A stretch of DNA of 3,995 nt. Source: a plasmid. Below the pieces are notes generated by a model. That model was not told where the DNA came from. It saw nothing but the letters and a program-made list of their open reading frames with translations, and did no database searches. How positions within the stretch are numbered: the first letter of the stretch is position 1; every line of letters starts with the position of its first letter. Location: the NCBI RefSeq assembly GCF_055900595.2, contig NZ_JBVWEU010000011.1; one strand, 5' to 3'. Positions 240 through 430 of this stretch are shown piece after piece. The position numbers and the translations under genes are program-made.

Positions 240-420
240 TTTTTCCCCCTAACCTAACCAAACCCTCCACCCCTGGGGGATTTTTTCCCCTTTCCCCGTA
301 TCCGGGCCCTGTATCTCGAACTGAGAGGCACTCAGGTACCCAACAATCAACAAACCCACCCATAAGCCCTGAGAGCCTCTCTGAGCCTTTTTAAGACCTC
401 CAGGCAAGCCTGGCAACCCT
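240..420 (+). other. C-rich, G-poor non-coding tract (3' UTR of the HTH gene) with short palindromes; rut-like or ssDNA-initiation-like, function unknown
   Basis: By hand count 241..420 has about 69 C versus 29 G on the + strand. Contains palindromes CCAGGC-aa-GCCTGG (~402..415), CTGAG-aggca-CTCAG (~322..336) and CCCC-t-GGGG (~270..278). No ORF with plausible composition. Confidence 0.3.
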
Positions 421-430
421 TCACAGTAAA

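Follow-up and report, generated by a model that had tools for sequence, protein, structure and literature searches.

A structured, C-rich non-coding module beside traD in a small mobilizable Klebsiella plasmid: a candidate single-strand initiation signal

What is a strongly C-rich, G-poor and non-coding tract of about 190 nt doing between two convergent operons of a small plasmid, and on which of its strands does it act? The question is raised by positions 240-428 of a 3,995-nt sequence (NZ_JBVWEU010000011.1, all of which was analysed and is referred to here as the window), which is a complete circular, ColE2-type, MOBQ-mobilizable Klebsiella plasmid of about 4 kb. The tract lies downstream of a gene for a helix-turn-helix (HTH) protein, and a traD-like gene is read towards it from the other side. 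It is a composite: a terminator of the rep operon comes first, and is followed by a hairpin-forming non-coding module (287-428). The module belongs to the mobilization (MOB) cassette, made up of traD, the transfer origin (oriT) and mobQ, rather than to the replicon or the HTH operon. It is a lineage-restricted, previously undescribed sequence, and most probably belongs to a known functional kind, either a single-strand initiation signal (ssi; single-strand origin, sso, in rolling-circle plasmids) or else a Rho utilisation (rut) site. The comparisons made below lead us to rank the ssi first, as a tentative assignment held at somewhat under even chances.

A terminator followed by a structured module

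In its composition the tract is as the initial annotation had described it. Between 241 and 420 there are exactly 69 C and 29 G (71 and 30 in 240-428), and no other part of the window is like it, the largest C-minus-G excess of any 180-nt segment being that which starts at 245. Segments of 78 nt with at least 33% C and at most 17% G occur only within 191-436 of the plus strand, and none occurs on the minus strand. For the plasmid as a whole the values are 19.8% C and 17.5% G; its GC content is 37%, compared to 54% in the tract. All of the motifs that had been pointed out are present: CCAGGC-aa-GCCTGG at 400-413, CTGAG-n5-CTCAG at 321-335, CCCC-t-GGGG at 270-278, and the CT-rich CTAACCTAACC at 249-259 and CCTGAGAGCCTCTCTGAGCC at 368-387. 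Two of the three palindromes, however, do not pair in the way that was read from them. CCCC-t-GGGG does not fold upon itself, being part of the hairpin CCTCCA/TGGGGG at 264-279, which has a T run after it; at CTGAG-n5-CTCAG the conserved helix is a long-range one, in which 323-336 pairs with 368-381. There are no tandem repeats in the tract, and each of its short direct repeats, D1-D4, is a family of two copies set in low-complexity sequence. Nor is the tract a single unit, as 226-286 and 287-428 are distributed differently among relatives. On the minus strand, 245-297 contains five G runs (GGGG AAA GGGG ... GGGG TGGA GGG ... GGGGG); these may form a G-quadruplex, with which complementary C/G pairing competes.

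The first part of the composite starts after the HTH stop with a 3' untranslated region (226-263, plus strand) that is G-poor and enters a G-free run, 240-274. This region is 98-100% conserved in the relative L016, is absent from the 3.4-kb plasmids described below, and is exclusive to the 4-kb ColE2-type family. In an alignment of the region that took in 17 plasmids, one GTDB contig and 11 contigs from metagenomes, the whole of 226-286 was near-invariant within that family and absent elsewhere. The untranslated region leads into T1 (264-286, plus strand), an intrinsic-terminator-like hairpin of the rep-HTH operon which was matched in a terminator scan. Its stem pairs 264-269 with 274-279 around a CCCC loop, and is followed by an A and six Ts at 280-286. 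L016 has T1 at the same site with seven pairs. The energy is -11.3 kcal/mol in the version found in relatives, which has six Gs; the window has one G fewer at 275-279.

The second part, the module, is bounded on its other side by a further hairpin, T2, and thus sits between two terminators. T2 (423-462, minus strand) is long, with a 6-bp GC core, CCAGCC at 434-439 and GGCTGG at 446-451, placed between A6 (428-433) and T6 (452-457). Its energy is -24.2 kcal/mol on the plus strand and -20.7 kcal/mol on the minus strand. In most relatives the plus-strand tail is TTCTTC and the minus strand retains the U run; T2 serves primarily as the traD terminator. The pattern scanner missed it, the T run having been taken up into the stem. 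Both T1 and T2 have the G+C-rich hairpin and U run of an intrinsic terminator.

Within the module the unpaired positions of the plus strand are A/C-rich and G-poor. The first stem-loop, SL-B (295-306, CCCG-TATC-CGGG), has an invariant stem and a loop of TATC or TTC. The second, SL-C (323-381), has arms of 7 bp (323-329 with 375-381) and 6 bp (331-336 with 368-373) with an A.A mismatch between them. They enclose a C/A-rich loop of 31 nt (337-367) that is free of G up to 365 and contains the core CAACAAACC[C/G]ACCCA; across variants this loop is 20-33 nt long and keeps its C/A-rich make-up. SL-D (400-413) reads CCAGG(C)-aa-(G)CCTGG in the window and CCAGCC-tac/gtt-GGCTGG in other variants. The 13-mer GCAACCCTTCACA (413-425), the 3' end of which pairs into the base of T2, is invariant in all 18 distinct module sequences, and is unchanged although the nucleotides of traD differ by approximately 20%. 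The unpaired plus-strand positions comprise 30 A, 34 C, 8 G and 22 T, whereas the stems are balanced, with 15 C and 16 G, and this confinement of the C excess to unpaired positions holds in each of the 18 sequences.

The hairpins SL-C and SL-D have been kept by compensatory changes. Four sequence types (A-D) can be recognised, in which the types of SL-C and SL-D occur in different combinations. Between types, three pairs of SL-C are changed on both sides (A-T to G-C, A-T to T-A and T-A to C-G), and in SL-D a G-C to C-G exchange is found in 4 of 9 and 7 of 18 distinct sequences, while the loop goes from 2 to 3 nt. With the helix arms located by explicit patterns, an alignment fitted to the structure, 93% of cells pair and 4 of the 18 pairs are altered on both sides; 1-5 of 500 column shuffles do as well, and no both-side change results when the registers are slid. 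RNAalifold, applied independently to a plain MAFFT alignment, also recovers SL-C and SL-D, and T2 in an extended form, four pairs being compensatory. Taken alone, the module (286-428) is more stably folded than shuffled sequences, with z from -2.0 to -2.9 (-2.3 as RNA). Addition of T2 brings z to about -4 to -5 for the plus strand as RNA or DNA and for the minus strand as DNA, and -2.4 for the minus strand as RNA.

The module does not appear to encode a protein: stop-free stretches of the minus strand switch frame between types and have no conserved start. With Rfam 15 at E<=10 there was no match in 226-422, only weak, chance-level ones on the T2 hairpin, and scans for tRNA and tmRNA gave no match in the tract. 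The best antisense target for the SL-C loop on the plasmid had an energy of -23.3 kcal/mol, which is not significant against shuffles at -20.8 +/- 2.3 kcal/mol.

Linkage to the mobilization cassette

The gene next to the module encodes a traD-like relaxosome accessory protein (463-747, minus strand; Pfam TraD), and is convergent with the HTH gene. Of the PLSDB records, 53 match the window and 43 hold the module with T2. In all 43 the pair adjoins traD, and 41 of the 43 are typed as mobilizable; conversely, every close relative with traD has the module. From about 287 onwards the sequence is also found in a set of 3.4-kb plasmids (L017, L018, L019, L023, L024, L026 and L030), none of which has a rep gene. 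The segment common to both plasmid types, 287 to about 2946 in the window, takes in the module, T2 and traD, followed by oriT, mobQ and then the spacer as far as the origin hairpin.

The replicon of the 3.4-kb plasmids is a non-coding stretch of about 680 bp (L017:2735-3410) that is ColE1-like and Rep-less and has an RNAI-like terminator; a promoter, TTGACA-16-TATAAC, can be read by eye on the opposite strand, and Rfam RNAI gave no match there at E<=0.1. The same replicon is common to about 28 small plasmids, including pUCD5000 of Tatumella. The module was undetected in 26 of 28 plasmids with this ColE1-like replicon, typed as non-mobilizable, none of them being among the 43 records of the module search. 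A sequence that is shared with Rep-less plasmids, undetected in non-mobilizable ones and tracks traD is therefore part of the mobilization cassette.

Outside this family no homologs were found in 72,556 plasmids, 5,426 Escherichia coli genomes or 50,697 phages. The family is confined to Enterobacterales, with one match among the GTDB species representatives and 11 in metagenomes, all of them the same plasmid type. No analogous tract is present in a distant TraD plasmid of 5.5 kb, nor in another ColE2/MOBQ plasmid of 3.98 kb. Between cassettes the module is 76-78% identical and traD 76-83%. The type A module is 96.5% identical between the window and L018, the traD genes of which are only 78% identical, and it must therefore have been exchanged by recombination.

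Strand assignment and function

A module of this kind could act as RNA or as DNA, and for the latter the identity of the strand exposed during transfer and replication is critical. The oriT core (1294-1318, minus strand) consists of an inverted repeat, 1303-1318, followed by G-TAAGTGGG, the complement of 1294-1302. Continued as G-TAAGTGGG-CATT, the minus strand resembles the nic region of RSF1010, which we take to be nicked between TAAGTGCG and CCCT; the 59-mer of RSF1010 used for this comparison is 100% identical to IncQ1 plasmids. On the nicked strand of RSF1010 the repeat and the nick are followed by mobC in sense, with mobB and mobA placed behind on the opposite strand. The same arrangement is seen on the minus strand of the window, with the repeat, the motif, the gene at 751-1134 and traD in sense and mobQ behind. 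From this RSF1010-like layout we infer that the minus, G-rich strand is the one nicked and transferred. The arms of the repeat covary among cassettes (ACGTCGC/GCGACGT, ACACTCG/CGAGTGT and ACATTGC/GCAATGT) between flanks that are both invariant; this variation (1294-1345, and the equivalents in L016-L028) looks like a diversification of relaxosome specificity.

The origin points to the same strand. A ColE2-type origin core, TATCAGATAACAGC, is found at 2946-2959 on the minus strand, adjoined by a hairpin at 2932-2946, and the same 14-mer occurs directly downstream of rep in pColE3-CA38 (L034:1408-1421), in the same sense as rep. In the window the core is upstream of rep, by about 150 bp, and reads in the opposite sense to it, compared to the downstream, same-sense core of pColE3-CA38. 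The ColE2 primer is said to be ppApGpA, a result attributed to Takechi and Itoh. The strand that reads CAGATAAC, and carries the AGA, is the minus strand of the window; we therefore infer that the leading strand runs toward lower coordinates and that the minus strand is again the exposed one, as the displaced lagging-strand template.

An ssi would make use of both assignments. The module would act as single-stranded DNA on its minus strand, analogous to the sso of rolling-circle plasmids, since that strand would be both the one transferred and the lagging-strand template of a unidirectional ColE2-type fork. In its G-rich form it would reach the recipient some 0.9-1.0 kb after the nick. The hairpins T2', SL-D', SL-C' and SL-B' of the single-stranded minus strand would fold and remain free of SSB (the protein that binds single-stranded DNA), and host priming proteins (the PriA primosome or DnaG) would use them to initiate the complementary strand. 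The ColE2 Rep primase would act on the duplex origin only and so would not prime on the incoming single strand; a plasmid with such an initiator would be expected to need a complementary-strand start recognised by the host, both after transfer and on the lagging side. The C excess of the plus strand would then be the mirror image of a functional strand that is G/T-rich and C-poor.

Several observations are consistent with this. The minus strand folded as DNA retains all four of the hairpins just named, ie there are stable hairpins on the strand that is probably single-stranded. The module is the only non-coding, structured element of the plasmid without an assignment, and it lies at the edge of the mobilization cassette. 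Its linkage to that cassette, the selection on its stems and the lack of a conserved ORF, promoter-like site, Rfam match or antisense target on the plasmid also count in favour. On the functional strand of the phiX174 F-G spacer (which holds the PriA/n' site) there are 32 G and 15 C, and on that of the PAS-like stretch of ColE3 (PAS, primosome assembly site) 46 G and 34 C; the minus strand of the module has 53 G and 25 C. That such an element would be needed is suggested by pColE3-CA38, in which a stretch about 100 nt from the origin is about 85% identical to the pBR322 PAS; the window has no counterpart of it. On its minus strand the invariant part of the module matches the phiX174 hairpin (3' arm and flank) at about 31 of 44 aligned positions. 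That score is attained by 2-76 of 1000 dinucleotide shuffles, depending on type, and six comparisons were made, which leaves the alignment as a lead only.

Precedents exist in plasmids and conjugative elements. Such signals have been reported in ColE1, ColE2, F and R100 (PMC7690428). In pMV158, ssoU and ssoA flank the mobilization cassette (PMC5737340), and sso1 of ICEBs1 helps acquisition by recipients (PMC4595007); the sso of both elements have been proposed or shown to make the transferred single-stranded DNA duplex in the recipient (PMC5737340, PMC4595007). The likeness to ssoA, ssoU and sso1 is one of design, a structured non-coding stretch of about 150-200 nt at the edge of a mobilization module. 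They differ in belonging to Gram-positive rolling-circle elements and in being primed by RNA polymerase, and there is no homology; the plasmid of the window is a theta replicon with a Rep primase. Like the primosome sites of the phiX174 type (n'/PriA sites; the ssi of ColE1, pBR322 and ColE2/ColE3), the module is non-coding, hairpin-forming and in concept strand-specific, has more G than C on the proposed functional strand, and would lie on the lagging-strand template or transferred strand. Unlike them, it has no significant homology to the PAS of ColE3/pBR322 and no hexamer resembling GAAGCGG, and is 2.5 kb from the origin. With G4 oric, where three hairpins occupy 136 nt, it has in common an array of hairpins in an intergenic spacer of about 135-175 nt; the difference is that in oric the start, 5'-CTG-3', is 3-6 nt 3' of hairpin I, and the module's minus strand has neither an equivalent nor any similarity.

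A number of findings weigh against an ssi. Neither G4 oric nor the PAS of ColE3/ColE1 shows significant similarity to the module, the ColE3 alignment scoring below the mean of shuffles, and the phiX174 resemblance is borderline after six comparisons. The window has no match to GAGCGAGGAAGCG within three mismatches. The module also lacks a hexamer like the GAAGCGG that n'-type sites have in common, and its minus strand, read at SL-B' and SL-C', has no 5'-CTG-3' just 3' of a hairpin. It is about 2.5 kb from the origin, as against the adjoining position, at about 100 nt, in ColE1/ColE3. Stem changes on one side only are contradictory, T.G in L010 favouring the plus strand and C.A (L017/L023) and A.C (L009) the minus strand. 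G-poor unpaired regions on the plus strand are equally expected of a functional plus-strand RNA, and on the functional strand of G4 oric C outnumbers G. Other plasmids of the ColE2/MOBQ type get by with no module of this kind. Finally, the proposed identity of the transferred strand is based on likeness to RSF1010. One further form of single-stranded signal, a promoter of the Frpo type (an imperfect hairpin of about 300 nt with -35 and -10 elements), was rejected, as the longest helix here has 13 pairs and there are no promoter-like hexamers.

The initial annotation had put a rut site first, with an ssi among the alternatives. On the present comparisons the ssi appears to fit the context at least as well as rut, and we give the latter perhaps one chance in five. 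As a Rho-loading region and transcriptional insulator the module would act in the plus-strand RNA: readthrough past T1, or past the RNAI terminator of the 3.4-kb plasmids, would expose the C/A-rich, G-poor segments 240-274, 280-297, 337-365 and 414-428, and Rho would terminate transcription before polymerase ran antisense into the convergent traD operon. The compositional hallmark stands, and is present in all sequence variants. This is the only C-rich, G-poor stretch on the plasmid, it has that composition over at least 70-80 nt, and between the convergent operons it would lie in untranslated RNA. The skew is restricted to unpaired positions and is kept in the 18 variants despite sequence change, even in an SL-C loop that ranges in length from 20 to 33 nt. 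As T2 in most relatives has a poor plus-strand U tract (TTCTTC), a backup could be of use. Lambda tR1 is known to have a hairpin between its two rut halves, and as RNA the module would resemble the rutA-boxB-rutB of that terminator in being C-rich, G-poor and untranslated, with a hairpin dividing C-rich single-stranded segments.

It differs from lambda tR1 in lying behind an intrinsic terminator, in having hairpins under selection and in its linkage to a downstream convergent cassette, and it is these differences that disfavour a plain rut site. The tract is downstream of the HTH stop and behind the terminator-like T1, and no promoter-like site was found; in both plasmid contexts an intrinsic terminator, T1 or the RNAI-like one, precedes the module. 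As RNA the tract has three hairpins, two of them kept by compensatory changes, and G-free single-stranded runs of 35, 18 and 29 nt, and the longest single-stranded C-rich stretch within the module is about 30 nt. Selected stems and an invariant 13-mer would not be expected of a rut site. The module is linked to the mobilization cassette in place of the upstream operon, and there are related plasmids in which the convergent genes are 16 nt apart with no such spacer.

It is rather unlikely, somewhat more so than a rut site, that the module works as some other structured RNA of the plus strand, either a small RNA derived from the 3' untranslated region or from readthrough and ending at T2, or a 3' stabiliser. 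The C/A-rich loop or the ACCUCC motif of a small RNA would bind a host RNA or protein. The combination of conserved hairpins and unpaired regions that are A/C-rich and G-poor is typical of functional RNAs, the RNA of the module alone folds with the z of -2.3 given above, and in the window it ends in a hairpin and a U run. The plus-strand U tail is, however, poor in most relatives, no promoter-like site is found upstream of the module in either plasmid context, and its position is behind a terminator. There is also no Rfam family, and no significant target on the plasmid.

We consider it about equally doubtful that the module is a functionless spacer or relic between convergent terminators, perhaps of imported GC-rich DNA, conserved because the family is young and recombining. 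The narrow, Enterobacterales-only distribution, the shuffling of variants by recombination, the existence of other ColE2/MOBQ plasmids without the module and a GC content of 54% in a plasmid of 37% all fit such a relic. The compensatory changes in two helices and the invariant 13-mer do not, and the module is present in every close relative having traD and no more divergent than its coding neighbour. The remnant of foreign GC-rich DNA raised in the initial annotation is thus unlikely, as an inert one, given the covariation of the hairpins; and where a plain backbone flank had been envisaged, the similarity searches do return a common backbone, but one with a conserved structure in it.

There is a slight chance that both strands matter, in a portable two-strand boundary element, or alternatively that this is a new plasmid RNA with a host target. 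In the former case the C/A-rich RNA of the plus strand would load Rho and insulate the cassette from whichever replicon it is joined to, and the G/T-rich complementary strand would prime second-strand synthesis after transfer.

Least probable is a site in duplex DNA, whether an operator for the HTH or a TraD-like protein, a Xer/cer resolution site or a vestigial second ColE2 origin: the palindromes SL-D and SL-B, the want of a recognisable cer elsewhere on the plasmid and an origin-like minus strand at 308-325 (AGATA-CAG and then a hairpin) speak for one, but the same HTH protein (WP_045287009.1) is found beside differing SL-D palindromes and spacings (2 or 3 nt) and plasmids without its gene keep the module, the full Xer core, of XerC and XerD half-sites around a spacer of 6-8 bp, has no match within three mismatches and matches to the XerD half-site are not above chance and none is in the tract, and the resemblance to an origin is within chance (score 16, against 22 for the best unrelated matches and 23.5 for shuffled queries). 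The protein-binding site of the initial annotation is thus unlikely to be an operator of the adjacent HTH protein.

Other features of the plasmid and significance

The cut point of the circular sequence lies inside the HTH gene (87 aa), which starts at 3957, continues past the last base of the window and has its stop at 225. The ATG of this gene overlaps the stop codon of rep (ATGA), and it is therefore probably co-translated with rep; the product matches Pfam HTH_23 / Sigma70_r4_2. Rep has the domains Replicase (PF03090) and PriCT_1 (PF08708), the architecture of ColE2-type initiators (PMC6856555). Eleven plasmids of 3998 bp from Klebsiella pneumoniae are 99.9% identical to the window, and the only differences are three single-base homopolymer indels, at each of which the window is one base short: 274/275 (G), 2781 (T) and 3616 (A). 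The last of these breaks rep into two open reading frames (ORFs), 3107-3640 and 3655-3960. All three are probably sequencing or assembly errors. A weak match to the Rfam CopA family was observed on the minus strand at 3028-3118, antisense to the rep leader, and also at L016:1214-1305, with scores of 27.7 and 31.1 bits compared to a gathering threshold of 60; this is probably RNAI of the ColE2 type, an antisense RNA by which rep and copy number are controlled.

Between traD and oriT is a gene for 127 aa (751-1134, minus strand) without a Pfam family, which in other cassettes is swapped for unrelated genes (there is no nucleotide match in L016-L019). The gene for the MobA/MobL relaxase is mobQ (1378-2571). 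Its interior (1441-1740) is a patch of approximately 55% GC in the 37% GC plasmid, which may be a recombination mosaic. Downstream of mobQ a small Lys/Arg-rich ORF of 42 aa (2649-2777, minus strand), also without a Pfam family, is kept in the 3.4-kb plasmids, where it has 49 aa and is annotated. NZ_JCAELP010000004.1 (7998 bp, E. coli) has two copies of the tract and double the plasmid length, and is either a dimer or an artefact of assembly. NZ_KP008371.1, a 128-kb IncFII/IncR plasmid that is KPC-associated, carries the complete plasmid as an integrated copy at 72131-76131.

Cryptic plasmids of this kind, 3.4-4.2 kb in size, are widespread among Klebsiella, Enterobacter, Citrobacter and E. coli of clinical and wastewater origin. 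If the module is an ssi, it would be a determinant of the establishment of these mobilizable plasmids in new hosts, and an example of an ssi that is unrelated in sequence to the classical primosome site of ColE1/ColE2. If instead it is a Rho site, the mobilization cassette would carry its own transcriptional insulation. On either reading it would be a lineage-restricted accessory element and would involve no new principle.

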